From the sequence record OK040907: 64,000 nucleotides of DNA; one strand, given 5' to 3'. Positions 1 through 35,683 of this stretch are shown here, one piece after another (the stretch's first letter is position 1; each line of letters opens with the position of its first letter). This DNA is from Enterobacteria phage Ac3. The position numbers were made by a program, and so were the translations under genes. Below the pieces are notes generated by a model, which saw only the letters and a list, made by a program, of their open reading frames with translations, had not been told where the DNA came from and did no database searches.

Positions 1-674
1 CCAAATCCCGTAAACTGGACTGTTACACCGAGTCTCATCACATTATCCCGCGCTGCCTGAATGGCTCCGATGACGCGAGCAACCTGGTAGACCTGACCCC
101 TGAGGAACATTACGTTGCACACCAGCTCCTGGTTAAAATTTATCCGTCCGAGCCAAAACTGATTTACGCTGCCAACATGATGACTGTATCCACTAAATAT
201 GCTAAACGCAATAACAAAACGTTCGGTTGGATCCGTCGCAAACTGTGGGAAATCGAAAAAAACAAAGAATTCTCTCAGGAAACCCGTAAGAAAATGTCCG
301 ATGCGGTTGCCAACAAGGCGCGCCTGACCTGCCCGCACTGTGGTAAATCTGGCCTGTCTGGTAACATGAATCGTTGGCACTTCGATAATTGCCCGAACCA
401 CCCGAATCCGAAAGTGCGTCCTCCGATGTCTAAAGAACACCGTAATAACATCAGCAACGGTCTGAAAGCAATTATCCTGGAGGAAACCTCTTGCGAATTC
501 TGCGGTATGATCGGCAAGAAATGCGTGATTGCAGCTCACCGTAACTTCTGTAAGAAAAACCCGAACGGCCGTAAGAAAACCGAGAAAACCGGTACTTGCG
601 TGCACTGCGGTAAAGTTACGACCTTTGGCAACCTGAGCCGTTGGCACAACGACAACTGCAAGCACAAACACTAA
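1..674 (+). CDS. HNH homing endonuclease, C-terminal part (5' end outside window)
   Basis: Frame starting at nt 3 reads SHHIIPRCLNGSDDASNLVDLTPEEHYVAHQLL (HNH motif) then three CxxC...W-x-D/N-NC zinc-finger-like repeats; no in-frame stop upstream; E. coli-type codons. Confidence 0.75.
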   Translation, partial: KSRKLDCYTESHHIIPRCLNGSDDASNLVDLTPEEHYVAHQLLVKIYPSEPKLIYAANMMTVSTKYAKRNNKTFGWIRRKLWEIEKNKEFSQETRKKMSDAVANKARLTCPHCGKSGLSGNMNRWHFDNCPNHPNPKVRPPMSKEHRNNISNGLKAIILEETSCEFCGMIGKKCVIAAHRNFCKKNPNGRKKTEKTGTCVHCGKVTTFGNLSRWHNDNCKHKH

Positions 675-2359
675 TTGATCGTAGCAACGGAGAAACGACC
701 CACTTTCTCCATTTTGATGTGCTGACCGTAGTCCTGTGGGTCGTGGTCTTTGTGGCTGATAATGAAAAAGTTAGTATCTTTCAGGCCATCGAGAATTTTA
801 GCGACGTTTTTGATACCTTCGGCGTCGAACGCGCCATCGTACACTTCATCCAGGAACAGGCAAGAGATTTTTACACCAGAGACTTTTTCGGCGATGTCAC
901 GCCAGGTGAACAGGAGGGCGATATCGATACGTGCCTTTTCGCCTTGGGAGAAGGATGCATAAGAGAAATCTTCGCGGCCGCGGGATTTGATAGTTTCGTT
1001 GAATTCCTCGTCCAGGGTGAAAACATAGTCCGCCTCCATAATTTTCAGATAATGGTTGATCTGTTTGTTGAACAGCGGGATGTATTTCTTAATGATCGCG
1101 CCCTTGATGCCGCTGTCTTTCAGCATGTCGGTCAGGATGCCACGGTGGTATTTTTCCATCACCAGGTTGGTTTTAGTCTTCACGATCTTATCCAGCTCTT
1201 CCTGCAGGAGGGCAATTTCGTCCGCGTGGTCAATGAATTCAGAGGAAGCTTTTTCAATGGCAGCTTTAACTTTCTTAGCTTTGTCAACCGTGGTAATCAG
1301 GGACTGTTTCTTGTTACGAATATCGTTCGCCAGAGACTGTTGGGTCTTAATGTTATCACGATATTCGTCCACCAGGACTTTCAGGTTATCGCGGTGGGTG
1401 GACAGTTGTTCAAAAGAGTGGGTGCATTCGCTCACCTTATCTTTAATTTTGCTCACAACTTTATCACCGCTGGACAGTTGAGACAGGCAGGTCGGACACA
1501 GACCGCCCTCGTGGTACATGTTGATAACTTTGTTGTAGCTATCGATTTTGGATTTAATCAGCACGGCCTCCTGGCCAATTTTGTTAAAAGCATCAGTAGG
1601 GTCTTCGTCCAGCACGATGTTGACCAGACGTTCATTCGCTTCCTCGATTTCGCTTTTCAGGGTACGAGCTTCTTTAGCCAGATCGTCGTACATGTTCTGC
1701 AGGCGCGTCAGGTTGTCACCGGTCAGTTTCTTCTGACGTTCTACGTTGTCGTTGTAGATCTTGATCTGTTGGATAATAGAGTCTTTCTTCACATCCAGTA
1801 CCTGGTTCTGAGAGTTCAGTTCACGGATCAGTGCTTTGTTCAGTTTGTCCATCTCCGCCAGGGTGCCAACCTCCAGGAGGTCTTCGACCAGCTTACGGCG
1901 TGCTGGAGTGCTCAGGCCCATGAACGGAGTGTAACCCGCAGTGCCGAGCACAACAATCTGCTTGAAGCTAGCGTAAGACATACCGATCAGCTGTTCGAAC
2001 TCGGCCTGAAAATCTTTGGAAGAGGCAGATTCGTTCAGACGGGTGCCGTTCACAGTGATTTCAAAGACGTTTGGTTTTTGACCGCGTTTGATGTAATATT
2101 TCTTTTCGTCATATTCCATCCACAGTTCTACCAGGAGTTCTTTCTTATTGGTGCTGTTGATCAGCTGGCCTTTCTTAACGTCGCGGAACGGTTTACCGAA
2201 GAGGCCGAAGGTAATAGCCTCCAGCATGGTAGATTTACCGCCACCGTTACGACCAGTGATCAGGGTTTTCTGAACTTTGTCCAGCTGGATATCAACGCCG
2301 TTCTGGCCTACGCTCATAATGTTCTTGTATTTAACACGGTTCAGTTTAAAGGATTTCAT
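671..2359 (-). CDS. 46: gp46 recombination endonuclease subunit (Rad50/SbcC-like ATPase)
   Basis: 562 aa; N-terminal Walker A GRNGGGKST, central coiled coil with CPTC zinc hook, signature FSQGE, Walker B LFLDEV; partner gene 47 nearby; written in E. coli-optimal codons. Confidence 0.9.
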   Translation of the reverse strand: MKSFKLNRVKYKNIMSVGQNGVDIQLDKVQKTLITGRNGGGKSTMLEAITFGLFGKPFRDVKKGQLINSTNKKELLVELWMEYDEKKYYIKRGQKPNVFEITVNGTRLNESASSKDFQAEFEQLIGMSYASFKQIVVLGTAGYTPFMGLSTPARRKLVEDLLEVGTLAEMDKLNKALIRELNSQNQVLDVKKDSIIQQIKIYNDNVERQKKLTGDNLTRLQNMYDDLAKEARTLKSEIEEANERLVNIVLDEDPTDAFNKIGQEAVLIKSKIDSYNKVINMYHEGGLCPTCLSQLSSGDKVVSKIKDKVSECTHSFEQLSTHRDNLKVLVDEYRDNIKTQQSLANDIRNKKQSLITTVDKAKKVKAAIEKASSEFIDHADEIALLQEELDKIVKTKTNLVMEKYHRGILTDMLKDSGIKGAIIKKYIPLFNKQINHYLKIMEADYVFTLDEEFNETIKSRGREDFSYASFSQGEKARIDIALLFTWRDIAEKVSGVKISCLFLDEVYDGAFDAEGIKNVAKILDGLKDTNFFIISHKDHDPQDYGQHIKMEKVGRFSVATIN

Positions 2360-2374
2360 TTTGTATCCAATTGT

Positions 2375-3240
2375 TTAGAGGCTAGAGAATTCTTTTACCA
2401 GGGCTTGCAGGCTAGCTTCGATCGGATAACCATTTTTCACCAGCATTTTACGGAACATCACGTGTTTAGGACGGTTATAGCTGATCCACAGTTCGTACAG
2501 TTTGTCTTTGTTGTCCCAGTGGTAACCTTTGCGACGGCTGGCAATGTGAGCCTTACGAATCTCCGGATTTTTCCAGCTTGCAGCGACAGAGTTGGAAATC
2601 GGCTTTTGATATTTTGAGACGGGCACAGCGGAGCGAAAGGCTTACGAGTGTTGAGTTTGGTGCGTTTCATGGTCAGACCGTTTGCCAGATGCCACTGGAA
2701 TTTCTGTTTAGTTTTGAAGTTATTCAGACGTTCTTTGTTATCCTTACGGTTTTTCGCTACGGAGAAGTATTTCAGTGCGCGTTCACGAGCTGCATTACGG
2801 TTCTGTGGGTTGGAGTAATACTGTTGCAGGCGTTTAGAAATGGTATCGGAAACATCCTGTTTGATAAAAGAGTATTCTGCCGCAATCAGATCAACTTCTG
2901 CCAGGCTGAGGTTTTTATAGGTTTTGCCAGACATCATACGATTCAGCGCGTTCAGCATTTTACCGTTTTTACCTTTTGCCAGGAGGAAGTGTGCTTTAAA
3001 GTGGTTAAAGTGGCTGAGGTTCACCAGGTTCCAGGTAGATTTGAGATATTCCGGGAAGATAGATTTCGGCAGCACGTGATGTGCTTCGGTCTTGCCCGGA
3101 GTCTTAACGGTGCTGTTAACGCTAATGAAGTTGATATAGGACTTAGCGTCTTCCTCAGACAGCGCCAGTTTTTCCACCAGTTCTTTGATCAGGAATTCAT
3201 CGTTGATGTCCAGTTTGAAGTTTTTAACAAAAGATTCCTT
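2375..3240 (-). pseudogene. HNH (Mob-like) homing endonuclease, frameshifted and without a clear start
   Basis: Upstream frame has AHHVLPKS...NLVNLSHFNHFKAH; coding continues in another frame (SWKNPEIRKAHIASRRKGYHWD...) after an apparent 1-nt deletion near 2600; in-frame stop at 3241-3243 with no ATG before GTG 3177. Confidence 0.6.
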
Positions 3241-9469: not shown

Positions 9470-9472
9470 GTC

Positions 9473-10079: not shown

Positions 10080-10081
10080 AA

Positions 10082-10297: not shown

Positions 10298-10412
10298 ATT
10301 TTACCCTTAATTGATTAACCAAGCATTGATAAGCACTAAACTATATTGCGAATAAAATTCTGGACCAAAATGAAAAATCATATCATTTATAGTATCCATA
10401 ATGTAATTCAAT

Positions 10413-10883
10413 TTAATCATGTGTCCACACCCCATCGGTATTTGACCAAAGTCGCTGATTATCTGATCCTCGCCACAGCTTTTTGGTCGGAAGATTTTTC
10501 TCATACTTCCCATCAATAATAACATCAACATATTTAAGCATTTCTAGTTGTTTAATATCTTCAAACTTATATCCTGTCCACAACCAAATGCTTTTATTGG
10601 GATAAAGATTTTTAATAGTTTGAACCACAGAGTGAATCACGTCTCTGTTATCAGGATAAAGAGGGTCACCTCCGGTTATAGTTAATCCTTCTATATAATC
10701 ATTATTCAAACATTCAATCAATTGTTCTAGTGTTTCACCAGTGAATGGAATACCATTTCTAGCATTCCATGTTGATTTATTATAACACCCTTCGCATTTA
10801 TGCAAACAACCTGTAACGAAAAGAACGACCCTGCATCCAGGGCCATTCACAAAATCACAGGGATAAAATCTATCGTAATTCAT
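10413..10883 (-). CDS. nrdG: anaerobic ribonucleotide reductase activating protein NrdG
   Basis: 156 aa, Cys-rich radical-SAM-type N terminus, directly downstream of nrdD. Confidence 0.85.
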   Translation of the reverse strand: MNYDRFYPCDFVNGPGCRVVLFVTGCLHKCEGCYNKSTWNARNGIPFTGETLEQLIECLNNDYIEGLTITGGDPLYPDNRDVIHSVVQTIKNLYPNKSIWLWTGYKFEDIKQLEMLKYVDVIIDGKYEKNLPTKKLWRGSDNQRLWSNTDGVWTHD

Positions 10884-12697
10884 TGGTGTTTAACCCTATG
10901 CATGATTTCTTTATTTTTACCGAGATTAAATCCGCGCTCGTTCGGATTTCCCAAATAACCACATGTTCTTCTTATTGTGTTCATCTTTTTAGGATCAGTT
11001 TCTCCACAAATAGAACAAACAAATCCGTTTTCAGTAGGAGTCATTTCATGGGTACTTCCACATGTAAAACATTTATCTACTGGCATATTAACACCAAAAT
11101 AATCTAAATGTTGTGCGGCATAATCCCATACAGCCTCAAGACCTTTTAAGTTATTTTTCATATCAGGAAGTTCAACATAAGAAATGTGACCACCTGTCGC
11201 AATGAAATGATATGGCGCTTCACGAGAAATCTTTTCAAACGGAGTAACATTTTCTTCTACTGAAACGTGGAAACTGTTAGTGTACCAGCCTTTATCAGTA
11301 ACATCCTTTACACTTCCATATTTTTCTGTATCAAGTTTACAGAAGCGATAGCAAAGGTTTTCAGCAGGAGTAGAATACAAACTAAAAGCAAACCCAGTTC
11401 TTTCAGTCCACTGTTTAAGATGAGCATTCATTTTAGTTAAAATTTCTTGTCCAATATCACGACCGATAAGAATATTCAATTCGTGAATACCAATGTATCC
11501 TAAAGACACTGAACTTCTACCGTTTTTAAATAACTCAATTATATCGTCATCGGGTTTAAGACGAACCCCGAATGCACCTTCTTGGTAAAGAATAGGAGCA
11601 ACAGTAGCTTTAACTCCTTTTAAGGAACTAATTCTACACATCAAAGCTTCAAAACATAAATCCATTCGTTCATTGAACAATTCGATAAATTTCTGTTCAT
11701 TGAGCTGTGTTCCAATATAAGAATCTAATGCGATACGAGGAAGATTCAGTGTTACAACACCGAGATTATTACGTCCATCAAGAATTTCATTGCCAGTCGA
11801 ATCTTTCCATACGCTCAAGAAACTACGACAACCCATTGGAGAAACAGGAACAGATGAACCAGTGATAGCTTTATTGTTCTTAGCTGAAATAATATCAGGA
11901 TACATCCTTTTGCTTGCACACTCTAAAGCAAGCTGCTTAATATCATAGTTCGGATCGTCTTTATAAAGATTAACACCTTCTTCAACAAACATAACAAGCT
12001 TAGGGAAAATAGGAGTTATCCCATCACGACCAAGACCTTTAATACGATTTTTCAGAATTGCTTTCTGAATCATTCGTTCAGTCCAGTCAGTTCCTGTACC
12101 AAATGTAATTGTTACAAAAGGTGTTTGTCCGTTTGAACTAAAGAGAGTATTTACTTCATATTCATAAGCTTGGAATGCATCGTATACATCTTTTTCTGTT
12201 TTAGATTGAGCATAATTTAACGCATCAGCGATTTGCCATTTTTCTGCATCCTCAATATGTTTTGCATAGGTGCGTTTAACATAAGGAGAAAGTACTTTAT
12301 CTACATTAGCAAAAGTCGTTCCGCCGTATTGATGGGAAGCAACCTGTGCAGTAATTTGTGCCATAATTGCAGTAGCAACACCGATTGATTTAGGAGTTTC
12401 AATCTGTGCATTACCAAGCTTAAATCCGTTCTCAAGCATTCCTTTTAAATCTACTAAACAACAATTAGTAAATGGAAGAGCAGGGGAATAATCAATATCA
12501 TGGAAATGAATAATTCCGCTTTCATGCGCTTTCATAATAAAAGACGGGACCATATTTTTGGCAATGTGTTTAGACACAATACCAGCCATAAGGTCCCGTT
12601 GAGTTGGAAAAACACGAGAATCTTTATTAGCATTCTCGTTTAAAAGGTCTTTATTAGTTTTATGAATCAATCCTTCAATTTCTTTTTCAATTGTCAT
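10880..12697 (-). CDS. nrdD: anaerobic ribonucleoside-triphosphate reductase NrdD
   Basis: 605 aa; C-terminal glycyl-radical motif RTCGYLG and Zn-ribbon cysteines; ORF is continuous (no intron). Confidence 0.92.
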   Translation of the reverse strand: MTIEKEIEGLIHKTNKDLLNENANKDSRVFPTQRDLMAGIVSKHIAKNMVPSFIMKAHESGIIHFHDIDYSPALPFTNCCLVDLKGMLENGFKLGNAQIETPKSIGVATAIMAQITAQVASHQYGGTTFANVDKVLSPYVKRTYAKHIEDAEKWQIADALNYAQSKTEKDVYDAFQAYEYEVNTLFSSNGQTPFVTITFGTGTDWTERMIQKAILKNRIKGLGRDGITPIFPKLVMFVEEGVNLYKDDPNYDIKQLALECASKRMYPDIISAKNNKAITGSSVPVSPMGCRSFLSVWKDSTGNEILDGRNNLGVVTLNLPRIALDSYIGTQLNEQKFIELFNERMDLCFEALMCRISSLKGVKATVAPILYQEGAFGVRLKPDDDIIELFKNGRSSVSLGYIGIHELNILIGRDIGQEILTKMNAHLKQWTERTGFAFSLYSTPAENLCYRFCKLDTEKYGSVKDVTDKGWYTNSFHVSVEENVTPFEKISREAPYHFIATGGHISYVELPDMKNNLKGLEAVWDYAAQHLDYFGVNMPVDKCFTCGSTHEMTPTENGFVCSICGETDPKKMNTIRRTCGYLGNPNERGFNLGKNKEIMHRVKHQ

Positions 12698-13167
12698 TTT
12701 AAACTCTTTCTAAGCTGCTTCTTAAATGAAGCTATTAATTGTGTTTTAGTGTCAGATTCATTATATTCAAATCCTCTTTGAAGCATCTCAGCCATCATTT
12801 CCTCTTTTCCTAAACGAGAAAATTCCTTTGATTTATCTCCAACAAAGTTAGGGTGAATATTATTTTGGGTGTAATCGGATTTTAAATAAGTAAGTAAATT
12901 TTCTAACCATTCAAGATAATCAACACCCTGTCCCTTTAAGCCAGAACGATTAAATTTATGCTTCATTTGACCTTCTGCGGCATTGCAGAGATTACAAAGC
13001 AATCCACGTACCTTTCCTGCTTTTGGTCCATTTAATTCATGGTCATGATCAAGATGATTAGCTTGAACATCAGGATTTAGTTCTCGTTGGCAAATTAAAC
13101 ATTTACCATTTTGTGCATCATAAAATTTCTGTTTTTCTTCTTTATATAATTTGCCAGTCAATAACAT
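12694..13167 (-). CDS. 49: endonuclease VII (Holliday junction resolvase)
   Basis: 157 aa, Cys/His zinc motif; matches T4 gp49 size and sequence. Confidence 0.9.
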   Translation of the reverse strand: MLLTGKLYKEEKQKFYDAQNGKCLICQRELNPDVQANHLDHDHELNGPKAGKVRGLLCNLCNAAEGQMKHKFNRSGLKGQGVDYLEWLENLLTYLKSDYTQNNIHPNFVGDKSKEFSRLGKEEMMAEMLQRGFEYNESDTKTQLIASFKKQLRKSLK

Positions 13168-13208
13168 AATAAACCCTTACCTTAAATAGATAAGGGTATT
13201 TATTATTT

Positions 13209-13694
13209 TCAAGTATTGTAAAACATTTGATTCAATCGCTTATATTGCCGAATCTTTTGGTCAGAAAAAGAAATTTGGGTTTCAAGCCATTCAATATATT
13301 CTGCCGCAGCTTGCATCAAATTTCCTTCATAGCCATCGTTATTTTCTTGTGCAGCTAATTTAGCTAATGCGTATGAAATACGTTCACCTTGAAAATCAGC
13401 TTTAGGCTTCTGAACAACTTGATTAGTTCTCTCTACAACTTCTTCAATTTCGCCATTTTCTACTGATTCAGTATTCCACAAGCACCAATACGTAATTGGC
13501 TTATCGTAGATGTTAATAATCTTTCCATCAGAAAGTTCAATTTCAATAATTCCAGTATCAGGCTCTATATCATCTTCACATTCTTTTGCAAGTTCACGAA
13601 CTTTAAAGACAGTACCTGCACTAAGTTCCGGCCAGTAATTACACAGCCCTATATCAGCACGATTAATTCTAAACCACTTATCTACTGTAATCAT
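13209..13694 (-). CDS. pin: Pin-like protein (Lon protease inhibitor)
   Basis: 161 aa from ATG 13694 with GGAGA SD; position after gene 49 as in T4. Confidence 0.6.
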   Translation of the reverse strand: MITVDKWFRINRADIGLCNYWPELSAGTVFKVRELAKECEDDIEPDTGIIEIELSDGKIINIYDKPITYWCLWNTESVENGEIEEVVERTNQVVQKPKADFQGERISYALAKLAAQENNDGYEGNLMQAAAEYIEWLETQISFSDQKIRQYKRLNQMFYNT

Positions 13695-13817
13695 GTCCCA
13701 TCTCCATATCAATTAAGTCATTTATCGTCGGTTCATTATATATTGTTTCTTCATCAGTGTAAACCGGTTCTTCCGGCTCTGGCTCTACAGTTTCCCATCT
13801 AGCCGCCCACCAAGGTT

Positions 13818-14138
13818 TTATAGCGTAATCCATTCTCGTACTGTCTGAGTTACTACACGTTCATGGGGCTCGACTAGTTCAACAGTCGGAACTGCATAAT
13901 ACCAGTCAGAATGATAAGAACCTGACCGAGATTCATTTACCGCTACATGTACATTATGTTTTGGACTAAAGTAAACACACTGACGATATTGACATTTACC
14001 ATCTTGCACCCAGTCTTCTATTTCGACAGGTTTAAGATAATCGGAAAAATCGAAATCATAGTTTTCCGAAAATGCATCATGGTCTTCAATGATTTCGCTC
14101 AGAACTGCATCAACATCTAATTTATTTTCAATAGTCAT
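13818..14138 (-). CDS. hypothetical protein
   Basis: 106-aa ORF. Confidence 0.5.
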   Translation of the reverse strand: MTIENKLDVDAVLSEIIEDHDAFSENYDFDFSDYLKPVEIEDWVQDGKCQYRQCVYFSPKHNVHVAVNESRSGSYHSDWYYAVPTVELVEPHERVVTQTVREWITL

Positions 14139-14148
14139 TTTTCACCAA

Positions 14149-14319
14149 TTAGTTGCGCAGCTTATTCAGTTCCTCGTCATCGATCCAAGACTCCAGACCG
14201 GACGGCAGAGCACATTCGATCTCCCACAGGAGTTCCTCAATTTTCTGCAGGCGATCCAGTTCCTCAGCCGGGATGGTCACCATGGACGGTGCACGGCTTA
14301 CGTTAATGTCATAGATCAT
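14149..14319 (-). CDS. small acidic hypothetical protein (E. coli-optimal codons)
   Basis: 56 aa MIYDINVSRAPSMVTIPAEELDRLQKIEELLWEIECALPSGLESWIDDEELNKLRN; below the 60-aa ORF-track cutoff; island bounded exactly by its start and stop codons. Confidence 0.5.
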   Translation of the reverse strand: MIYDINVSRAPSMVTIPAEELDRLQKIEELLWEIECALPSGLESWIDDEELNKLRN

Positions 14320-14321
14320 AT

Positions 14322-14537
14322 TTACCCCAATTTAACCATACAATCGCCGTATTTCCACTTAGAAATAGACTTTTCACCATTAGAATAATAAACTTCGAGT
14401 TTAGCACGATTATTTTTAATTTGAATAACCTTGGCTGTCATCAAAGTTCCATACCCATAATAAACTGCAACTTCATCACCTACATATACCGCGCTTCCGC
14501 GGTAATCATGAATATAGTCAGTTCCTTCGAGCATCAT
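14322..14537 (-). CDS. hypothetical protein
   Basis: 71-aa ORF. Confidence 0.5.
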   Translation of the reverse strand: MMLEGTDYIHDYRGSAVYVGDEVAVYYGYGTLMTAKVIQIKNNRAKLEVYYSNGEKSISKWKYGDCMVKLG

Positions 14538-14797
14538 TTAAAATATTCTCGCAGTTGGTCAAATCCACCAATATGACTTCCATCAGGAGCAAATACCTGG
14601 GGCATTGTCAAGCCGATTTGAGTATCACGACCTAGTTTAGTCAGAAGCTCAGCGATTTTCTCATCATCAAAAACACCTTTTTCCGGCATAATGTTGATAA
14701 ATTCAAACGGCTGTTTCTTCACGGTCAAAAGACGTTTTGCATTATCGCAATACACACATTTATGAATGTTGCTATCATAACCATATACTTTAAACAT
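14534..14797 (-). CDS. nrdC: glutaredoxin/thioredoxin NrdC
   Basis: 87 aa, CVYC active site, matches T4 NrdC. Confidence 0.85.
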   Translation of the reverse strand: MFKVYGYDSNIHKCVYCDNAKRLLTVKKQPFEFINIMPEKGVFDDEKIAELLTKLGRDTQIGLTMPQVFAPDGSHIGGFDQLREYFK

Positions 14798-14798
14798 A

Positions 14799-15041
14799 TT
14801 ATTCCTTAATTCCTAGTACTTGTTTAAAAGTCTCGTCGTAATCAAGACTTTGGCCTGTTTGTTCTTTATGTTTGTATATAATATCACTTACTTCTGATAG
14901 CATATTTTTATATGAACGAGTTAAAGCAGATTTAAGTACGCTGTACCTATCAGGAAATTTACCATGTTCATTATAATAAGCTATTGCTAATTCACGGACT
15001 GCCTTTTCAGCAGCCTCCATATATTCTTTACGCTTGGTCAT
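14799..15041 (-). CDS. hypothetical protein
   Basis: 80-aa ORF. Confidence 0.5.
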
Positions 15042-15043
15042 TT

Positions 15044-15433
15044 TTAATCCAAAATATTATTAGGCATTGGTTGAACACTCACAAGTTCTTTAAAGAACTC
15101 AGTAGAGTCAGGCAATTTAACCATTTCCGGAGCATGCTTACTGAATTTATGTTTACATTGACGGCATTTATATTCAAGCTCTGGTTTACGCCAGTTAATC
15201 AATTGAACTTGTTCAGTACCGCATTCAGGGCAATTAGGAACGTTTTTAGAAGCTCTTTCACGTCGTTCAACCATAGCCATAATAGCATCCCATGCTGGAG
15301 GTTTAAAATCTAAATCGTCGCAGCCGTGAATCTTTCCACGCATTTCCAAATCGTCTTCTTCACCAGCCATAATAATTTTAATTAGACTAGAATTACTTGA
15401 AGCTGCAATGTCTTCTAATAAACGCTTTTTCAT
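15044..15433 (-). CDS. zinc-ribbon protein
   Basis: 129 aa with CPECG...CRQC motif. Confidence 0.5.
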
Positions 15434-16356
15434 TTCAATACCTCAATAGCATTACGTAAACCATTTGCTTTGGCGGTTAAAGCCTTAAGAACTTTAGTAT
15501 GCTCTTCAATCTGTTTTTCAACTTCAATCAAACGGGCACTGAGATATTCGCGTTCTTCTTTCATAGTATCATTTCCATGATTGGATTTTGGTGTAGGTTT
15601 AAATTCACTAGGGTCCTTTAATTTAATAACAAATTTAGTTTCAAACAGTGAAAGACCATAATTCGTATTATCATCAAAGGATTTGACTACATCCATATCA
15701 GATAATAACACGCGCAAATTATAAGCCAAAGAACTAATAGTTTCATTGTGTTTATTAGCTTCGCGTGGTTTCATATACGGAAGATTTTTATATATCTCAT
15801 GCGGAGCGCAAACGATAATTGACAATTCAAATTGTCCATTCTGGGACGATGGAGTGAATTTAGCCGTAACCCAGTCTTTTACATTCACATTAATAGTACG
15901 GTTATCACCATGACAAAACAGTCTACGAGAATGCTTAAAAAGCATATTCACGTTATTATTGAATTCGTGTGAAAATTCACTAGCAAATTTTTCTTTACTA
16001 TCTTTAGAAAACCATTCTTCTAAATAAGTTCTTTTCACGTCGTTAATAATATTAAATGTAACAACACTAGCATTTGATACATTAGTCTCAATGTAGCTTG
16101 GATACATAAATTTTTTAATATTATTAACAGCTATCACAGAAGATAGTAATCGGGAACGTTTGAACCACTCGAGCAAAGAACCAAGAGAATGTGAATACGC
16201 ATTTTGTGTATCTTTACAAATATGGTTTTCCCATCCAATATAGTCTAAAAAATCACGAAGAATATTATTGATTACTTCTCTATGTCCTTTCTGATAATCA
16301 CGATGTTTAGTAATAAGACTGTCAAAATAATCAATATAATGTTTACGAGTTTTCAT
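15430..16356 (-). CDS. hypothetical protein with C-terminal coiled coil
   Basis: 308 aa; first of four consecutive 300-343 aa ORFs ending in heptad-like helices. Confidence 0.55.
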   Translation of the reverse strand: MKTRKHYIDYFDSLITKHRDYQKGHREVINNILRDFLDYIGWENHICKDTQNAYSHSLGSLLEWFKRSRLLSSVIAVNNIKKFMYPSYIETNVSNASVVTFNIINDVKRTYLEEWFSKDSKEKFASEFSHEFNNNVNMLFKHSRRLFCHGDNRTINVNVKDWVTAKFTPSSQNGQFELSIIVCAPHEIYKNLPYMKPREANKHNETISSLAYNLRVLLSDMDVVKSFDDNTNYGLSLFETKFVIKLKDPSEFKPTPKSNHGNDTMKEEREYLSARLIEVEKQIEEHTKVLKALTAKANGLRNAIEVLK

Positions 16357-16410
16357 GTTCTTCTCACTTGGTTAATGATTTATACTCCGAGCCATCCTTG
16401 GCTTTAAATT

Positions 16411-17442
16411 TTACTTAATTAACTGTAAAGCTTGTTCCAGACGATCAAGACGATTAACAGATTCTTCCCAAATCCTTTTAGCCTGCTCATATTCTTTCTG
16501 TGCTTTATTAGAAATTTCTAGAACTTCTTTATAAGCTTTTTCTAGTGCAATAACTTCTGGACGAATTTCTATCGGTTCAGGTGAATCATCAAGATTATCC
16601 ATTAGTTCCTCAAGGGTAGTTTCTTCTTTAGGAGTATTCACAATTTCATCACATTTTTGTTGATAAATTTCTTTATCAGTAGGTGAGTACGCGCACTTTA
16701 CTTCACGAAGACTAATTACAATTTTATATCCTTCCCAACCACCCATATTTTTGAAAGGATATGTATGAATACTTTTTACAGTTTCCATACAATCCAAAGC
16801 CGTCTCTAATTGATGAGTTATAGTGCTAGCAATTGAGAAAAATTTATTAATATTCTTTTGGTTAGCTTCTGGTGTAAAAAATTCGTAATTCACAAAAATA
16901 GCTACTTTATTTTTATCAAGCTCATATTCTTTTACGATAATCATATCAGAAGCCAAAGGATGAATTTGACGATAATCGCCATAACATAATTTAGAAGCTG
17001 ATTTTAGAATTTGTCCTTTAAAAAGTCTGAAATTGCTAATCCAACGACGAGTAAAAATATTCTTAGGGTCTTCTTTGATATTAAGATGATAAGAATTAAC
17101 ATCACCGAACCAATTGTATCCTATTACACCTTTAGTTCGTTTAATTTCTTTCCCAAAATTACCAAGAATATCCCGATTAACCAAATATGAAAGAAGACGA
17201 GACCCTTTAAAGATTATCTTAATATCATCTTTATCTACACGGCTAGAAATTTCACGAACTTCATGAATAAATTTACTGGAAGAAACAATACTTGCATCAA
17301 TACTGCTGAGCCATTGATTGATAATAGAAAGAACAGCGTTCTGACTAGACATGGGTTTAACTTTATCATCAATAACACTATTGAATGATTTGATATATTC
17401 GTTACGAGTCATAATAATCTCCTCAGTAGAAAGTAAGAACAT
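16411..17442 (-). CDS. hypothetical protein with C-terminal coiled coil
   Basis: 343-aa ORF (start may be the internal M at residue 11). Confidence 0.55.
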   Translation of the reverse strand: MFLLSTEEIIMTRNEYIKSFNSVIDDKVKPMSSQNAVLSIINQWLSSIDASIVSSSKFIHEVREISSRVDKDDIKIIFKGSRLLSYLVNRDILGNFGKEIKRTKGVIGYNWFGDVNSYHLNIKEDPKNIFTRRWISNFRLFKGQILKSASKLCYGDYRQIHPLASDMIIVKEYELDKNKVAIFVNYEFFTPEANQKNINKFFSIASTITHQLETALDCMETVKSIHTYPFKNMGGWEGYKIVISLREVKCAYSPTDKEIYQQKCDEIVNTPKEETTLEELMDNLDDSPEPIEIRPEVIALEKAYKEVLEISNKAQKEYEQAKRIWEESVNRLDRLEQALQLIK

Positions 17443-20838: not shown

Positions 20839-21558
20839 TTAGGATTCTTCTAAATGTCTTTTCTGAAAAGTTGATACCATACTACGATACGGTTCATTTG
20901 GATATCCGTGTTTTATAGCTTCCTTTGTAAATTTTCTCCATCCATATTTAGTTTCTTTCCAAAGCTCGAATAATTCATCTTCATATTGCCATATAGTTAA
21001 ATGAGAACGCTTTGCAGCTTTAATTCCATTAATATGCTTTTCTTTTACTACAGGATTGCTTAGTTTCTTTTTAATAATATTACTAACTTTTCTAACAAAA
21101 ACTGGGTCCTTATATCGTTGCGAAGTTTTTATTGAAGTGTTTAATTTAGCTTCCGGCGTGGATGTGACCTCTTTCATCTTTTTCTTCATATGCTGTATAT
21201 GATTAGGATTTTTCCATAAATTTATAGAATGCTTTTTGCATTTTATCCTAGTTTCATCTGCAACCTTTCCTCCTTCACCCCCGTATGACAGGTTAACACA
21301 GTTTTTTCCATATTTCAATTTACCTGCCATGATATATAATATTTCAGCTTGTACCATTTTATCATAATTATCAAAAACTTCTAAAACCGTTTTTGATAAT
21401 ATGTGGTCATTTGACACTTTTACACGTTCTATATAATTTCCACTACCAACATACGAATCATTGATGTTATTAGTTATATGTCGACCATAATAGTATTTCT
21501 TAATACCTGTCTTTAAATTTAATATTTCAGTTTTATAGATAGTAAAATATTTTTTCAT
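20839..21558 (-). CDS. GIY-YIG family homing endonuclease (Seg-like)
   Basis: N-terminal IYKTEILNLKTGIKKYYYG GIY-YIG-like motif with downstream R and E; basic C-terminal half. Confidence 0.5.
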   Translation of the reverse strand: MKKYFTIYKTEILNLKTGIKKYYYGRHITNNINDSYVGSGNYIERVKVSNDHILSKTVLEVFDNYDKMVQAEILYIMAGKLKYGKNCVNLSYGGEGGKVADETRIKCKKHSINLWKNPNHIQHMKKKMKEVTSTPEAKLNTSIKTSQRYKDPVFVRKVSNIIKKKLSNPVVKEKHINGIKAAKRSHLTIWQYEDELFELWKETKYGWRKFTKEAIKHGYPNEPYRSMVSTFQKRHLEES

Positions 21559-22523
21559 TTTAATAATACCGTTTCAGCGATTTCTTCCCAACCGTTTTTG
21601 TCGGTCATAATAAAGTCAGCAAGATAAAGTGCAGTACGCAGTGAAACATTACGTAAACGATTAACATTGACTTTCATCCATGATAATGCTTTATAAGTTT
21701 CTTCATCAGAAAGACCGCGCTTTTGCATCATGTCGGTTGAAAGAATAACATCTTCAACCCTGACCATAATTTCTTCATTAGTGTGAACACCCAAATCCAA
21801 ATAAACTGAGCGGGACACTAATGCTTGTAAATGTGGAGCAAGTTTAGTACCACGGTCTAATTCGCGGTCAATGTCAACGTTTGTGATAAAAACAATCGTT
21901 CCTTTAAATTCAAACTCACGCTCAATGCCTTTTTCTTCTAAGTAAGAAGATGCGGTGCTCCAGCAGACTTTACGGGTCTCTCCAGTGTCCAGAGCAGCTT
22001 TCAGAAGATTAAGAATGTCCATATCAGAGAAAACATCCACATCATCAATCAAAAGGACAGAATTCTCTTCACGATTATTCCAAAGCTGTTCATAAAGACC
22101 AATACCAGAGATTTTACCATTAATGCTTTTATACTCAATGTATCCAATATCATTTGCTTTATTTAAAGCTTTATCTAAAGAATACGTTTTACCAATACCT
22201 GCTGCTCCCGAGATAATTAATGAACGAATGTTTCCGTTAATAATACCATTCGTCATCATTCCCATAACATTAAATCTTTTATTAATGCGGGTTTTCATAT
22301 CTTCATACGATTCTTTAACTTCTTCAACTTTTACACCATCATATGAAATGTCTGATTTGTAAACCCAAACACCGCGACGCTTACCGTCAATTTCAACAAA
22401 AACTTTACCATCTCCTTGTGCATCTACCGGAGCATTATCTGGGAACCATTCGCCTAAGAGCTCAAAAGTTCCAGAGATTTCTTTACCGAAGTAGATACCC
22501 TTATTGATAGTTACAGTTTTCAT
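21555..22523 (-). CDS. P-loop NTPase (AAA-like ATPase)
   Basis: Walker A GAAGIGKT, Walker B LLIDDVD; ATG 22523 preceded by GGAGAA SD and lying downstream of the promoter; ORF track extends to 22589. Confidence 0.6.
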   Translation of the reverse strand: MKTVTINKGIYFGKEISGTFELLGEWFPDNAPVDAQGDGKVFVEIDGKRRGVWVYKSDISYDGVKVEEVKESYEDMKTRINKRFNVMGMMTNGIINGNIRSLIISGAAGIGKTYSLDKALNKANDIGYIEYKSINGKISGIGLYEQLWNNREENSVLLIDDVDVFSDMDILNLLKAALDTGETRKVCWSTASSYLEEKGIEREFEFKGTIVFITNVDIDRELDRGTKLAPHLQALVSRSVYLDLGVHTNEEIMVRVEDVILSTDMMQKRGLSDEETYKALSWMKVNVNRLRNVSLRTALYLADFIMTDKNGWEEIAETVLLK

Positions 22524-22555
22524 TTTATTCTCCAAATCTGTATCAGTTGATAGTT

Positions 22556-22588
22556 GTATAGTACCATAAAGCTTTATGCTTGTAAACA
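22556..22588 (-). promoter_or_regulatory. T4-type early promoter
   Basis: minus-strand TTTCACAAAGTTGTTTACA (-35) and TACTATACAACTATCAACTGA (-10 region). Confidence 0.5.
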
Positions 22589-22616
22589 ACTTTGTGAAAA
22601 ATTTTTGAAATAAAAA

Positions 22617-22634
22617 AGGGAGCCCGAAGGCTCC
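22617..22634 (-). terminator. rho-independent terminator
   Basis: hairpin GGGAGCCTTCGGGCTCCC followed by TTTTT on minus strand, just after the NTase stop. Confidence 0.55.
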
Positions 22635-22637
22635 CTA

Positions 22638-23648
22638 TTACTTATAGTAGGAGCGGTGGTTCTCCAGGTAAACTTTTTCCAGAAAGTCATCCCAGAAACC
22701 CATGTCAACCTTTTGCTGCATGCCATTCTTGGATGCTTCCGTGCTCGCAGCCTCCACCTGATCAACTACGTCCTCGAGGAATTCCTGCACGGTTTTGAAC
22801 GGGTGCTTGCCCAGTTTGACATCCAGGATAAACGGCGCATCCTGCAGTGGGTAGATCAGGTCGCCGGTTTTGTAAATTTCCAGGAGCTGCAGGCCACCGC
22901 GGCATGCATGGGACAGAGCTTTCCAGTCGATGCCTTCGTTTGCCTCTGCTTTGCGGGCGCGTTCGCCGTATTCAGCATCCAGTTTATTCAGGGATTGTTT
23001 CAGTTCGATCAGGCTCAGGGTAGTCTGATATTTACGACCCAGCACCGTATAGAAAGTTTGCGGGCCGGTTTTTTCGTGGTTGTGAAACACCCATTCACAG
23101 AATTCGTTTTCCGGCAGGCGGTGTTTGATATCTTCGATTTTGGTACGGCGTTGACCCTGAGTGCCGTCTTCGCGATAAACGTTGCGCTGGTCCGGGATCT
23201 GATTCACGACTTTCAGGACGTCGCGCAGAGCGGCCAGACGGGAGCCCTTAACACCATATTTAGAGGCTTGTTTGCGTACATAGCCCAGGTAAGATTTCAT
23301 ATTGGTAGTGTAGAAGCGGCTGCGGTTGTCCTGAATGAATTTCCAAACGTCAGGCAGATCGCTCTTAACCACCAGTTCTGGCGGCGTATGCAGCATGTCG
23401 AGTGCCACGGTCTCACCGTCCGCAGCCAGTTTGAAAAAATACTTGAGGCTATACAGTTCGTGGTCGATGTCATCTTTGGTATTCTTGCTAGAGGTATTGT
23501 TGGTGTTTTTAGACATGTGTTCTTTCACGTTGCCGATCAGAATGTCACGTGCCGGTGGCACGAAGATCTCTTTGAAGTCGACATCGCTTTCCGGGGTGGA
23601 AGTGCCGTACAGGTGGCTGCCAAAGTAGGATTTCATCACAGTCTTCAT
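22638..23648 (-). CDS. Pol-beta-superfamily nucleotidyltransferase
   Basis: 336 aa; N-terminal GSHLYGTSTPESDVDF (GS...DxD NTase motif) with later acidic residues and helical C-terminal region; E. coli-optimal codons; start overlaps upstream stop (TAATG). Confidence 0.65.
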   Translation of the reverse strand: MKTVMKSYFGSHLYGTSTPESDVDFKEIFVPPARDILIGNVKEHMSKNTNNTSSKNTKDDIDHELYSLKYFFKLAADGETVALDMLHTPPELVVKSDLPDVWKFIQDNRSRFYTTNMKSYLGYVRKQASKYGVKGSRLAALRDVLKVVNQIPDQRNVYREDGTQGQRRTKIEDIKHRLPENEFCEWVFHNHEKTGPQTFYTVLGRKYQTTLSLIELKQSLNKLDAEYGERARKAEANEGIDWKALSHACRGGLQLLEIYKTGDLIYPLQDAPFILDVKLGKHPFKTVQEFLEDVVDQVEAASTEASKNGMQQKVDMGFWDDFLEKVYLENHRSYYK

Positions 23649-24109
23649 TATTCAGCTTTGTATTCGATCACCGGACACACTTTCGCTTTGCGCGCTTTCA
23701 GGAACTCAACAATGATAGATTTCTTCGGTTGGATTGGCGGCAGGCCTTTGTAAGCGCGATCGATGTTTTCAACGTGCAGCGCGTAATCTTTCTTCCATTT
23801 GTAGTCTTTGTATTTCTCACGCAGGTGCGCCGGAATCACGAAGGAGCCGATAATCAGGAGAACCACCAGGAGTGCCAGAATGAACGCGGATGGCAGGAGG
23901 GTCCACAGGCTACCGAAGATCAGCCAGCGCTGCAGGGATTCAGCACAGATAATAGTCAGACCAACCAGGATGGCACAACCGAAGATGGAAACGAAAAACG
24001 TCGGGATGGCGATAGACCAGAAGTACGCGCACAGGGTTTTAGGGCGCTGCCACTCGTCGTTAAACAGTTTGAACAGCTTATAGTGCCAAGAGTTTTCATT
24101 AATGATCAT
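23648..24109 (-). CDS. small membrane protein coupled to the NTase
   Basis: 153 aa, 2-3 hydrophobic helices then basic tail; AAGGA SD; E. coli-optimal codons. Confidence 0.6.
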   Translation of the reverse strand: MIINENSWHYKLFKLFNDEWQRPKTLCAYFWSIAIPTFFVSIFGCAILVGLTIICAESLQRWLIFGSLWTLLPSAFILALLVVLLIIGSFVIPAHLREKYKDYKWKKDYALHVENIDRAYKGLPPIQPKKSIIVEFLKARKAKVCPVIEYKAE

Positions 24110-24111
24110 AA

Positions 24112-24633
24112 TTATCCTTTCATTGAAGGCGTAACGGTTGTTAAATACTTAATCATAGCTTCAGCTTCTGATTTTGATAATGAAATTTCTCCATTGCTTT
24201 GACGAATAGAAATAAAATCCGGATGACGGTCACCACCAGCTTTTAAAACACACATATAAGTATCAACTTCGCCTTCAATATTTGAAATGATTGAAGCAGT
24301 TCCACATGAATGCGGTTTTTGATAAATCAATACAGCTTTTCTTCCACCATTTGACTGTTCATAGGCTTTTAATACATCAAACAAATCAGTTCTTTTATCA
24401 ATAGCTAAAATGTTATTTTCATCTTCAATGTTAAATCCTTCGGATACTTCATAAAGCGTTACCCATAAATCACCGATGTCAATAACAGCATTTACTTTTC
24501 CACAGCTTTCAAGAGTATGACAAATTTTCTTGATTTCGTCATAACTCATTTTAATAATATCATCTCCTTGGCTAAGAAAGATGTCATTTTTAAATTCAAC
24601 ACGAATTAAACCACTTCCACTTGAAATAAACAT
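24112..24633 (-). CDS. hypothetical protein (paralog of 24640..25185)
   Basis: 173 aa; shares GFNIE...and C-terminal ...EA.A(M/L)K.YL..V.P(S/T)M tail with neighbour. Confidence 0.55.
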   Translation of the reverse strand: MFISSGSGLIRVEFKNDIFLSQGDDIIKMSYDEIKKICHTLESCGKVNAVIDIGDLWVTLYEVSEGFNIEDENNILAIDKRTDLFDVLKAYEQSNGGRKAVLIYQKPHSCGTASIISNIEGEVDTYMCVLKAGGDRHPDFISIRQSNGEISLSKSEAEAMIKYLTTVTPSMKG

Positions 24634-24639
24634 ATTTCC

Positions 24640-25185
24640 TCACTTTGAAATCATAGTTGGAATAACAGAATCAAGATAAGTCTTTAGTGCAATAGCTTCG
24701 TCTTTGGTAAATGTAATGATATGTGATCGAAAATCGTCAATTTGACGAATAGATACTACATCTCCCTCTTCATAGCATTTTGACACATTTAAAATAGTTT
24801 CATCATTCTGATTGCAAGCGTTAGTAATAATAGCATTGCAATTTTTAAACCATTTTAAACTATGTTTTCTTTCATTAGAATAATAAAAATATTTAATCTT
24901 ATCTATAAAACTATCCCAATGGATAACTGATAAGCATATTGACTCGCTTTCAATATTAAATCCTGGGCATGAAGAATAAAAATGAATTTTATGCTCATCA
25001 TTAATGCTTACAATTTTATCAGTATAAGGATTTTCAATTTTGGTTAAATGAATGATTTCACTAGGCGTAAAATACAGCATATCGTCTTCTTGTGTCAAAC
25101 GATACATATTATTTACTTTTTCTATAGCCAATTCACCAAAAAGTGAACTAACTTCTAATACTAATCGTTTCGCCTCGCTCATCAT
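24640..25185 (-). CDS. hypothetical protein (paralog of 24112..24633)
   Basis: 181 aa. Confidence 0.55.
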   Translation of the reverse strand: MMSEAKRLVLEVSSLFGELAIEKVNNMYRLTQEDDMLYFTPSEIIHLTKIENPYTDKIVSINDEHKIHFYSSCPGFNIESESICLSVIHWDSFIDKIKYFYYSNERKHSLKWFKNCNAIITNACNQNDETILNVSKCYEEGDVVSIRQIDDFRSHIITFTKDEAIALKTYLDSVIPTMISK

Positions 25186-25512
25186 TACATACTCCTTTGA
25201 ACCATATCAATAATGTTATTCACCAGATTATAAGTAAACATTGGGTAATTATATTGAATCATCACATACACAACAAACAAAACTTTCATTCTCTTCTCCT
25301 TGGCAGTTGACAAGATTACTATACCATAACCTTGCCAACTTGTAAACCATTAAATGGCGTTTTCAATAAAATTCTGAAGCTTTGTGTGAGCATCAACCAT
25401 GATTTTCATTTCTTCTTTGGCGAAAGCTGTACCTCTTTCCCGAGAAGAACATTCATAGTCAGAAACTGCATTAGCATATTCTTCGATTAGTTTCATTAAA
25501 AACATCTGTTTT

Positions 25513-28083: not shown

Positions 28084-28514
28084 TTATTTCGGTTTACCTT
28101 CCTTCACGAAGTCTGGGTACGGATAAAAGCCAGAGTAGAAACCTTCGCCTTTGTGGTTGATACAACCTTTGTTGGAACAATAGCACCAGTAATCGAAATC
28201 GCAAGCCATTTCGTCGTTGCACAGGGCGAAAACGACCGGCCATTTACATTTTTCACAGTGCGCGTTTTTCAGGATGGAAGTCTGGGATACCGCCAGGTGA
28301 CTTTCAGGCAGTATTCCTCCACATGCTGTTTGCGACCTTTCTTGTCGATGAAGGTGTATTCAACGAAGGTACCGATGTAATCTTTATCCACGTCGTGCGG
28401 AGAGTTGATCGGGCACTTAGTACGGCAGATGCGTTCCCACTGACGAATGATTACAGCCTTGTTTTTCGGGTCGAACGGGTGTGGATAATGTACTTTTACA
28501 GCAGCGGCTCCCAA
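28084..28514 (-). pseudogene. Cys/His-rich putative zinc-binding domain, disrupted by frameshifts (probably once fused to the upstream macro domain)
   Basis: Coding in E. coli-optimal codons switches frame near 28292-28297 (..KVTW / AVSQTSILKNAHCEKCKW..); its start has no ATG and overlaps the macro gene stop, where re-inserting one G would fuse the frames. Confidence 0.5.
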
Positions 28515-28963
28515 TCAACGATTACGATTTCCAGTTTGGAAGAATAGGTGTCCAGGATACCTTCAATGATGTCCCAGTTGCCTTTACCGATGCCGGCGCC
28601 GATGCGCGGCATGTAGATGGTTGGTTTGATCAGTTTGTTTTCACCGAATTCGTTCAGCTCCAGCATACAATTCATCAGCGCAGAATATTCAAAGTTTGGG
28701 CCCGGCTGGAACTGAGTGTACAGGTTAAAACAGTACGCTTTGTGGGTGCGAAAGTACTTTTCATACACGGAGTAGCTACCCAGTTTAGTCACGTCGCCCC
28801 ATTCGGTCTGCAGCTTGTCAGCTTCCAGGATTTTCGGAAACGCTTTGGTCAGCTGACCGGCTACACCCGCTTTCATGGTATGGAAGCAGTTACAGCCGTG
28901 AGCGATGTTTTTACCTTCGGCAAACAGCGCTACGATATCGCCTTTGATGTATTTGACAATCAT
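28496..28963 (-). CDS. macro domain protein, TARG1/OARD1/DarG-like (putative ADP-ribose hydrolase)
   Basis: 155 aa; KGDIVALF...HGCNCFHTMKAGVAGQL...MPRIGAGIGKGNWD matches TARG1-family macro motifs; E. coli-optimal codons; ATGA overlap with upstream gene. Confidence 0.7.
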   Translation of the reverse strand: MIVKYIKGDIVALFAEGKNIAHGCNCFHTMKAGVAGQLTKAFPKILEADKLQTEWGDVTKLGSYSVYEKYFRTHKAYCFNLYTQFQPGPNFEYSALMNCMLELNEFGENKLIKPTIYMPRIGAGIGKGNWDIIEGILDTYSSKLEIVIVDWEPLL

Positions 28964-35289: not shown

Positions 35290-35683
35290 TCAGTTCTGGC
35301 TTTTGCAGCGGCTCTCTTTTACGAATTTCATGATTTCATCAAATTCGTGAGCCGCCAGCTTCAGCTGGTGTTCTTTCTTGATTTTCTTGCACTGCGCTTT
35401 CCAGTCACGAACACGTTTGCGATAATGACGACCCTGGTACCAGTAACCGATCCAGTTGATCGGCACGAGCAGGAGCGGAACCACCAGCGGCAGGATCAGG
35501 GTAGCGCCGAAGATTGCGCCGGATTCGATATCAGTCATAACGTCGATAACCATACCGGCAATAACCAGAATAACAAAAGAGACCACAACCACCGGACCGA
35601 TCAGCACGTCAGTGGAGATAATTTGGCGCTTCAGTTCGTATTTCAGTGGTTTGCTCGGCAGGTACAGAGACGGTTTGGACATA
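35290..35683 (-). CDS. membrane protein (same family, E. coli-optimal codons)
   Basis: 130 aa from ATG 35683 (MSKPSLYLPSK...), two hydrophobic helices, basic tail ending ..ESRCKSQN; ORF track extends to 35703 through native sequence. Confidence 0.55.

Follow-up and report, generated by a model that had tools for sequence, protein, structure and literature searches.

Sequence comparison places NrdC.11 of Enterobacteria phage Ac3 in a divergent long form of the RlaP family, a candidate for RNA 3'-end restoration in phage tRNA repair

We analyzed a stretch of 64,000 nucleotides from Enterobacteria phage Ac3 (sequence record OK040907), hereafter the window, and concentrated on two adjacent open reading frames (ORFs) that encode a small membrane protein of 153 amino acids (aa) and a predicted nucleotidyltransferase (NTase) of 336 aa. 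The coordinates of these and all other features are collected in Table 1. An initial annotation of this DNA had reported the two ORFs as joined by a TAATG overlap and located in a phage early region; both ORFs and the overlap are present, on the minus strand, which had been omitted, and the region is the T-even early region. The 336-aa protein is 100% identical to NrdC.11 of phage RB51 (YP_002854055), labeled “nucleotidyltransferase” in RefSeq, and the 153-aa protein is 100% identical to RB51 RB32ORF096c (YP_002854056). With respect to RB51 nrdC.11, the DNA alone differs, by synonymous recoding. The NrdC.11 of T4 (PHA02603, COG3541) is ~96% identical over its full length and occupies the same site, between nrdC.10 and the mobD.1 region; the assignment of nrdC.11 as a nucleotidyltransferase dates to a COG3541 match in 2006 (PMC1524935). 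The 336-aa gene is therefore the already catalogued T-even NrdC.11 and not a new kind of system. We propose that its product probably serves phage tRNA repair as an enzyme that restores nucleotides at RNA 3' ends, and that the membrane protein is an independent neighbor.

The N-terminus of NrdC.11, MKTVMKSYFGSHLYGTSTPESDVDF, holds G10, S11, D22, and D24, which had been read at the outset as a GS...DxD nucleotidyltransferase signature. This reading is well supported, as all four residues are invariant in an alignment of 74 family sequences, together with G15, S21, N56, D62, Y131, R230, K243, H247, R250, and P267. The additional acidic residues pointed out alongside the signature are conserved as well: D62, within DDIDHE, is invariant, and D84, within VALDM, is conserved in at least 90% of the aligned sequences. 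When 1.84 billion cluster representatives were searched exhaustively, 3416 relatives were recovered, 821 of them at E ≤ 1e-30, the best of which were full length with 35-58% identity. NrdC.11 also matched phrog_388, “nucleotidyltransferase”, at E 2e-135.

The AlphaFold2 model of NrdC.11, computed from the 74-sequence alignment, had a predicted local distance difference test score (pLDDT) of 94.2 and a predicted template modeling score (pTM) of 0.85, and the motif residues fell on its elements E2-9/H11-14, E23-30, and E61-67. The protein thereby displays the features that define the Pol-beta superfamily, namely hG[GS], [DE]x[DE], a third carboxylate, and an alpha/beta NTase core. A Foldseek comparison of the model with the PDB returned Pol-beta NTases, weakly (E ~2e-3, template modeling (TM) score ~0.3), and a comparison with viral models returned many phage “nucleotidyltransferases”, with TM scores up to 0.75-0.79; the best structural matches were all Pol-beta-fold transferases. 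The Pol-beta NTase fold, on which the initial annotation had staked its reading, is thus borne out by the model and the Foldseek matches, with the catalytic triad intact. At the sequence level, searches of the PDB with NrdC.11 and its 74-sequence profile found no meaningful relative, in a PDB set that does not include the PfRlaP structure. The long helical C-terminal region that had been described holds in part: the model does contain a C-terminal helical bundle, but a six-strand beta insertion stands ahead of it.

Profile hidden Markov models, suggested earlier as the means of placing the protein among NTase families, assigned NrdC.11 to RlaP (Pfam PF10127, “RNA repair pathway DNA polymerase beta family”), where its score of 44 bits (E 2.8e-11) exceeds the cut-off of 23. 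The match spans aa 6-134 of the protein, corresponding to positions 23-142 of the 249 in the Pfam model, and 73 of the 74 sequences of the NrdC.11 clade match RlaP. An hhalign comparison of this clade with 16 canonical RlaPs detected homology over aa 2-93 only (probability 92%, E 7e-7), with D62 of NrdC.11 paired with the invariant third Asp of the canonical enzymes. Neither PF10127 nor hhalign yielded a match over the full length of RlaP, including the canonical C-terminal helical domain. Like RlaP, NrdC.11 possesses the GS, DxD, D core, combines an N-terminal NTase domain with a C-terminal helical domain, and scores above the family cut-off. Unlike canonical RlaP, it is ~336 rather than ~270 aa long, its C-terminus is not alignable and carries the six-strand beta insertion, and it belongs to a different part of the family: in the published PF10127 similarity network, “T4NrdC.11” lies in cluster 5, whereas the assayed enzymes, the phage protein not among them, lie in cluster 1a (PMC12776372). 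By these comparisons, NrdC.11 is a divergent, paralogous “long form” of RlaP, with a common catalytic core, some relatives in RNA-repair neighborhoods, and a different C-terminal domain. Its C-terminal two-thirds probably sets the choice of substrate. We found canonical RlaPs in 80 phage records, and since none of these is from a T-even phage, NrdC.11 is the only RlaP-family member in T-even phages.

The first biochemical study of RlaP, a preprint of December 2025, dealt with two Pseudomonas enzymes, PfRlaP and PaRlaP, encoded between rtcB and rtcA (PMC12776372). Both extend an RNA 3'-OH by one or two nucleoside monophosphates, favor the 5' half of a mimic of cleaved tRNA, are most active with Mn2+, and leave DNA and protein untouched; acting before ligation, they allowed a tRNA lacking one anticodon-loop nucleotide to regain aminoacylation in part (PMC12776372). 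In the crystal structure of RlaP, an NTase domain at the N-terminus is followed by a helical domain at the C-terminus (PMC12776372).

We then surveyed the genomic neighborhoods of full-length NrdC.11 relatives (24-44% identity), collected by tblastn against plasmids and by a scan of 100,044 species genomes. Neighbors were counted at 78 bacterial loci, with their identities confirmed by Pfam; several of the groups obtained by BLAST clustering of the neighboring ORFs were antisense or housekeeping and were set aside. Overall, the only enriched neighbors were RNA-repair genes and canonical RlaP. For example, the closest plasmid copy, from Asticcacaulis (35% identity over 97%), lies in an operon with the order Hen1, Pnkp, NrdC.11-like NTase, and a second NTase (RlaP), and a relative in Deferribacter follows RtcB on the same strand, at a distance of 2.5 kb. 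Similarly, the homologue in Sinorhizobium phage phiM12 is flanked by an Rnl2-type and an Rnl1-type RNA ligase. At 13 of the 78 loci, the enzyme gene has Pnkp, Hen1, RtcB, a PF09414 RNA ligase, or Ro60/TROVE as a same-strand neighbor no more than 8 kb away and often directly adjoining; when only loci with 12 kb of sequence or more are counted, such neighbors occur at 10 of 45. The neighborhoods of a jumbo-phage homologue and of a Bacillus plasmid homologue contained no annotated repair genes. At 17 of the 78 loci, a canonical RlaP of ~270 aa, matching PF10127 over the whole model (E 5e-70), is encoded directly downstream of the long NTase, which suggests that the long and canonical forms constitute a two-enzyme unit in bacteria. 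We found no description of this tandem arrangement in the literature searched.

Tandem genes for a long NTase and a canonical RlaP were recorded at our loci L010 (positions 6001-7790), L016, L017, L033, L036, L037, L041, L046, L055, L056, L057, L061, L063, L064, L069, L070, L075, and L088. At L057 the two are apparently fused into a single ORF of 601 aa. The Nitrosospira contig L033 encodes Ro60/TROVE, RtcB, the long NTase, canonical RlaP, Hen1, and Pnkp on the same strand (positions 3555-16626).

From the catalytic core, the gene neighborhoods, and the biochemistry of distant relatives, we infer a substrate, a product, and a role for NrdC.11. Using a metal site formed by D22, D24, and D62, the enzyme would extend the 3'-OH of broken RNA, especially of tRNA halves, by one or a few nucleotides in a template-independent reaction. 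The added nucleotides would replace those taken out by RloC-type anticodon nucleases of the host, after which the phage polynucleotide kinase (pseT) and RNA ligase 1 (rnlA), both encoded by RB51, would reseal a functional tRNA. NrdC.11 would in this manner act as a counter-defense accessory to the classic T4 tRNA-repair pathway, and an anti-defense role is plausible. RloC cuts out the wobble nucleotide and thereby leaves damage that is expected to hamper tRNA repair by the phage (PMC2610378); RlaP in jumbo phages was earlier predicted to restore such excised nucleotides (PMC7824862), and the replacement of nucleotides lost to “smart” ribotoxins such as RloC has been proposed as the role of RlaP (PMC12776372). 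In the T4 pathway, Pnk/PseT and Rnl1 are set against PrrC, whereas damage of the RloC type would require a nucleotide-restoring step. Although RB51 has pseT and rnlA, nrdC.11 is not clustered with the genes of the pathway, and its link to the pathway is our inference.

Several observations weigh against this role. The characterized RlaPs are distant, with only aa 2-93 of NrdC.11 alignable to them and its C-terminal two-thirds specific to the clade. At 54 of the 78 bacterial loci, neither a recognized repair gene nor a tandem RlaP is found nearby. In bacteria, the frequent pairing of the long form with canonical RlaP raises the possibility that it does not act by itself, and the canonical form is missing from T-even phages. 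The T-even nrdC.11 adjoins no RNA-repair gene, and pseT and rnlA of RB51 are ~80 kb off. In the literature searched, we found NrdC.11 assayed neither biochemically nor genetically; T4 mutants with deletions across nrdC.11-mobD.3 are viable (PMC9825161), which fits an accessory role and offers no functional clue. Finally, the gene for the membrane protein retains a loose synteny with the enzyme gene even in Acinetobacter phages, and a functional link between the two is possible.

The 153-aa protein matches phrog_944 (“membrane protein”, RB69ORF104c-like) at E 3.8e-50 and has the two hydrophobic helices and the conserved termini of that family. Two or three helices and a basic tail had been anticipated. 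The basic tail is there (58 C-terminal aa with 15 K+R, net charge +7), as are two strong hydrophobic segments, at ~aa 29-55 and 62-93 by hydropathy, but a third strong segment is not. The AlphaFold2 model of this protein was of low confidence (pLDDT 63.6), and we used its secondary structure alone, with helices at aa 8-20, 26-64, 68-120, and 132-144. The prediction fits a two-helix membrane hairpin, which, judging from the positive tail, probably resides in the inner membrane with both termini in the cytoplasm. Among 5.8 billion proteins, the family comprises 23 clusters, all from T4-like phages and none with a Pfam domain; the family profile has no match in Pfam or the PDB, and the protein belongs to no NCBIfam or PADLOC family. 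Many members, including the T2 copy, are shortened to 85-135 aa. The termini are conserved, reading NSWHY...PK(T/S)LCAYFW at the N-terminal and (F/Y)LKA(R/K)KxKVCPxxE at the C-terminal end, and the membrane core is variable. Invariant residues are S7, W8, H9, Y10, P23, K24, L26, C27, Y29, F30, and W31 on the N-terminal side and K138, K141, K143, C145, P146, and E149 on the C-terminal side. Speculatively, the two termini (aa 7-31 and 133-149), with H9 and the two cysteines, could form a small cytoplasmic metal- or ligand-binding site.

The combination of an NTase with a membrane partner had been taken for an architecture shared with defense and toxin-antitoxin systems, and its conservation in related phages had been proposed as a check. 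The enzyme turned up in 1564 phage records, compared to 918 for the membrane protein. With a fused query, both genes were close together in 855 of 1562 records, and ~45% of enzyme-bearing phages had no detectable membrane-protein gene nearby. T4 itself encodes the enzyme but no membrane protein; the gene for the HNH homing endonuclease MobD fills the slot and overlaps the start of nrdC.11. Klebsiella phage KpV477 has a true homologue of the membrane protein (34% identity, E 7e-25), with two unrelated ORFs between it and the enzyme gene, and in Acinetobacter phage Konradin one ORF intervenes between the enzyme gene and a more distant homologue (26% identity, E 2e-9). At the bacterial loci of the enzyme relatives, no homologue of the membrane protein was found (0 of 78). 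The pair does co-occur in relatives, but it is optional and often separated or shortened, and with these counts we abandoned the view that it is a conserved architecture. The membrane protein is a separate, dispensable, and optional neighbor, specific to T4-like phages, rather than an established partner of the enzyme.

On the coding strand, the junction of the two genes reads GAATAATGAAG (GCT GAA TAA TG AAG), with one base common to the TAA stop and the ATG start; the native RB51 junction is TGATG. The initial annotation had taken this overlap as a sign of translational coupling. The one-base overlap is real but nothing special: between 31 and 97 kb of RB51, overlaps occur in 47 of 109 adjacent same-strand gene pairs (43%) and measure exactly one base in 12 of these, and the TAATG overlap is therefore ordinary for this genome.

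These data also bear on the reading of the locus as a two-gene module, in which the transferase would make or modify a nucleotide signal, or modify a target, and the membrane protein would be its effector, anchor, or regulator, in the service of superinfection exclusion, anti-defense, or toxin-antitoxin-like control. We consider such a module improbable. The stop/start overlap and a probable common transcript are compatible with it, but so frequent an overlap between neighboring genes says little. Adjacency in 855 phage records and loose synteny reaching into Klebsiella and Acinetobacter phages count in its favor, against which stand the general conservation of gene order in T4-like phages, the unrelated ORFs that intervene in distant relatives, the large share of enzyme-bearing phages without the membrane-protein gene nearby (T4, with mobD in the slot, among them), and its absence from all the bacterial loci. 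A docking surface might be provided by the conserved termini of the membrane protein in the cytoplasm, yet shortened copies are common. Moreover, no defense, toxin-antitoxin, or signaling family was matched. PADLOC returned 0 families for NrdC.11 at E up to 0.1, and no CD-NTase or defense family of Pfam matched; the score against NCBIfam MntA was 13.3 bits (cut-off 60) and that against Pfam NTP_transf_2 13.5 bits (cut-off 21). The HEPN toxin gene that adjoins MNT/MntA was not found, the neighbors being the membrane-protein gene and nrdC.10, and AbiEii/DUF1814 gave no match in Pfam or PADLOC. None of the three proteins searched fell into a PADLOC or NCBIfam family. The suggestion of a signaling-nucleotide or toxin-antitoxin NTase thus found no support, as NrdC.11 passed no CD-NTase, MNT/MntA, AbiEii, or defense profile and passed RlaP instead. 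Even less probable is a Hailong-like or anti-Hailong system, with NrdC.11 as a HalB that makes short oligodeoxynucleotides and thereby gates the neighboring membrane protein or holds the HalA channel of the host closed. The likeness to HalB is at the level of the fold, at 14-16% identity. Hailong is a bacterial defense system to which neither protein is related in sequence, and the pairing seen here is not conserved. We rejected the analogy at the sequence level, where PADLOC and the PDB profile searches of both proteins were negative: the NrdC.11 profile found no HalB, and the membrane-protein profile matched no solved structure and hence no HalA. In addition, NrdC.11 passes the RlaP profile, its relatives occur in RNA-repair operons, and characterized RlaPs are inactive on DNA.

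A less remote alternative, though still an unlikely one, is that NrdC.11 acts on another target, by 3' tailing of mRNA or small RNA, by adenylylation of a small molecule in the manner of kanamycin nucleotidyltransferase, or by AMPylation of a protein in the manner of MNT or DrrA. The clade-specific C-terminal two-thirds, so different from canonical RlaP, would accommodate such an activity, and the structural neighbors include aminoglycoside NTases, DrrA, the GlnE adenylyltransferase, and MNT; however, the scores against MntA and NTP_transf_2 were far under their cut-offs, and kanamycin nucleotidyltransferase/ANT(4') and the 3c18 NTase-like protein have 8-12% identity to NrdC.11 and TM scores of ~0.3, with no sign of a small-molecule substrate. 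The lack of an adjoining RNA-repair gene in T-even phages, and of a recognized repair neighbor at most bacterial loci, likewise leaves room for another target, but RNA-repair genes and canonical RlaP are the only neighbors that are enriched, and the RlaPs assayed so far refuse protein and DNA. We also entertained, as a long shot that we rate slightly below the two-gene module, a scheme in which the bacterial long RlaP performs the first half of a two-enzyme nucleotide restoration, followed by canonical RlaP, inside the operons of Pnkp/Hen1 and RtcB. The long form of T-even phages would work alone, with the conserved cytoplasmic termini of the 153-aa protein bringing it to the inner membrane or controlling it there; a distinct subfamily, with the beta insertion and a HEPN-like bundle, would then couple RNA repair or another nucleotide transfer to a membrane signal. 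Restoration of RNA 3' ends by NrdC.11, with the membrane protein as a bystander, remains the reading that we favor.

The two genes had further been described as lying in a recoded island. The compositional jump is real, with a GC content of ~50% precisely across the two ORFs and 30-38% in the surroundings. Its cause became apparent from a comparison with RB51 (NC_012635). Positions 21500-25200 of the window align without gaps to RB51 53500-57200, with flanks that are 100% identical, and the entire window equals RB51 32001-96000 apart from three isolated substitutions and five dense synonymous blocks (Table 1). The isolated single-base differences are at 17918, 51140, and 60975. Over the pair, the 359 differences all fall inside the block and cause 0 amino-acid changes in either protein. 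About 65% of the codons of the two ORFs are altered, toward those preferred by E. coli: Leu is encoded by CTG in 43 of 50 cases, ATA, AGG, CGA, CTA, and TTA are absent, and both stops are changed from TGA to TAA. All five blocks are bounded by ORF ends and leave the proteins of the targeted ORFs unchanged; amino-acid changes are confined to ORFs that overlap recoded ones (7 in e.5, 3 in tk.3, and 2 in e.3). The GC-rich block is an artificial, E. coli-style codon optimization of exactly these two ORFs and not a result of evolution. Because the recoding is artificial, the block is uninformative on the origin or function of the genes, contrary to what the notion of an island might suggest.

A natural cassette, horizontally acquired or selectively recoded, would likewise produce a sharp jump in GC at the ORF boundaries, but it is hardly conceivable with 359 synonymous and 0 non-synonymous changes between flanks that equal RB51 to the base, with four similar blocks elsewhere in the window that are likewise delimited by ORF ends and change proteins only in overlapping ORFs, and with E. 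coli-optimal codons and exchanged stops. A horizontal-transfer origin was accordingly rejected on the synonymous-only differences, the RB51-identical flanks, and the E. coli codon use. The recoding also lengthened the stop-free run on the plus strand over the pair to 379 codons, compared to 92 in native RB51, and hence gave rise to the 365-aa ORF antisense to nrdC.11, which is not a gene.

As for the local layout, a terminator-like hairpin directly follows the nrdC.11 stop; it is native sequence, the same in RB51. Together with a promoter-like site, it separates the enzyme gene from the downstream nrdC.10, which is the AAA-like gene with a promoter of its own that had been reported, the promoter being a consensus match only. 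The nrdC.10 product is an AAA/STAND-like P-loop protein of phrog_1250, for which every Pfam AAA score was below the cut-off, and the gene also follows the NrdC.11 homologue in phages IME08, KpV477, and Konradin. Directly upstream of the pair, on the same probable transcript, are two tandem paralogues that correspond to mobD.1 and RB32ORF097c; the product of each contains Pfam T4_y05I_N and T4_y05I_C (“y05I-like putative transcription factor”). Judging from the predicted signals, mobD.1, its paralogue, the 153-aa gene, and nrdC.11 probably form one transcription unit that starts from the site upstream of mobD.1.

Table 1. Features of the nrdC.11 locus and recoded blocks in the 64,000-nucleotide window of OK040907
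Feature	Position	Strand	Basis or remarks
nrdC.11, 336-aa ORF	22638..23648	-	ORF listing; coding sequence including stop
NTase catalytic core, aa 1-112 (G10 S11, D22 D24, D62)	23313..23648	-	AlphaFold2 model and alignment
Clade-specific C-terminal part, aa 113-336	22641..23312	-	Helices 118-149, six-strand beta insertion 154-208, helical bundle 213-335; invariant R230 K243 H247 R250
RB32ORF096c, 153-aa ORF, predicted small two-helix membrane protein	23648..24109	-	ORF listing, coding sequence including stop; RB51 identity, hydropathy, phrog_944
Intrinsic-terminator-like hairpin and T-run	22617..22636	-	AGGGAGCCTTCGGGCTCCCT then TTTTTATTTC; 8 pairs, 6 GC; scan
Promoter-like site before nrdC.10, TTTACA-17-TACTAT, TG ahead of second hexamer	22558..22586	-	Consensus-scan match only
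nrdC.10, downstream AAA-like gene	21558..22523	-	Separated from the enzyme gene by hairpin and promoter-like site
Homing-endonuclease hotspot	20839..21558	-	RB51 seg-like endonuclease between nrdC.9 and nrdC.10; also L002 9430-10001
Tandem paralogue upstream of the pair	24112..24633	-	
Tandem paralogue upstream of the pair	24640..25185	-	
Promoter-like site upstream of mobD.1, TTTACA-17-TATAGT, 10/12	25318..25346	-	Consensus-scan match only
365-aa ORF antisense to nrdC.11	22656..23753	+	
Recoded block: mobB-like homing endonuclease, gene 46, stretch up to 46.1	2..3226		
Recoded block: RB32ORF081c (“antitoxin”)	14152..14314		
Recoded block: nrdC.11 and RB32ORF096c	22639..24104	.	359 synonymous substitutions; GC 50.5% vs 36.8% native; ungapped RB51 comparison
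Recoded block: RB32ORF111c/tk.3/tk.4	28085..28955		
Recoded block: e.4	35291..35677		

The idea of nucleotide restoration is not new: it has appeared in print as a prediction for RlaP enzymes, with T4 NrdC.11 named. What our analysis contributes is the removal of the signaling, toxin-antitoxin, and two-gene-module readings, the recognition that the compositional island is artificial, and the documentation that the closest bacterial relatives belong to repair operons with Pnkp/Hen1 and RtcB, where a canonical RlaP often accompanies them in tandem. If the proposed role is true, NrdC.11 would complete the classic T4 story of tRNA repair and may allow T-even phages to survive the wobble excision by RloC, which has been thought since 2008 to defeat plain repair.

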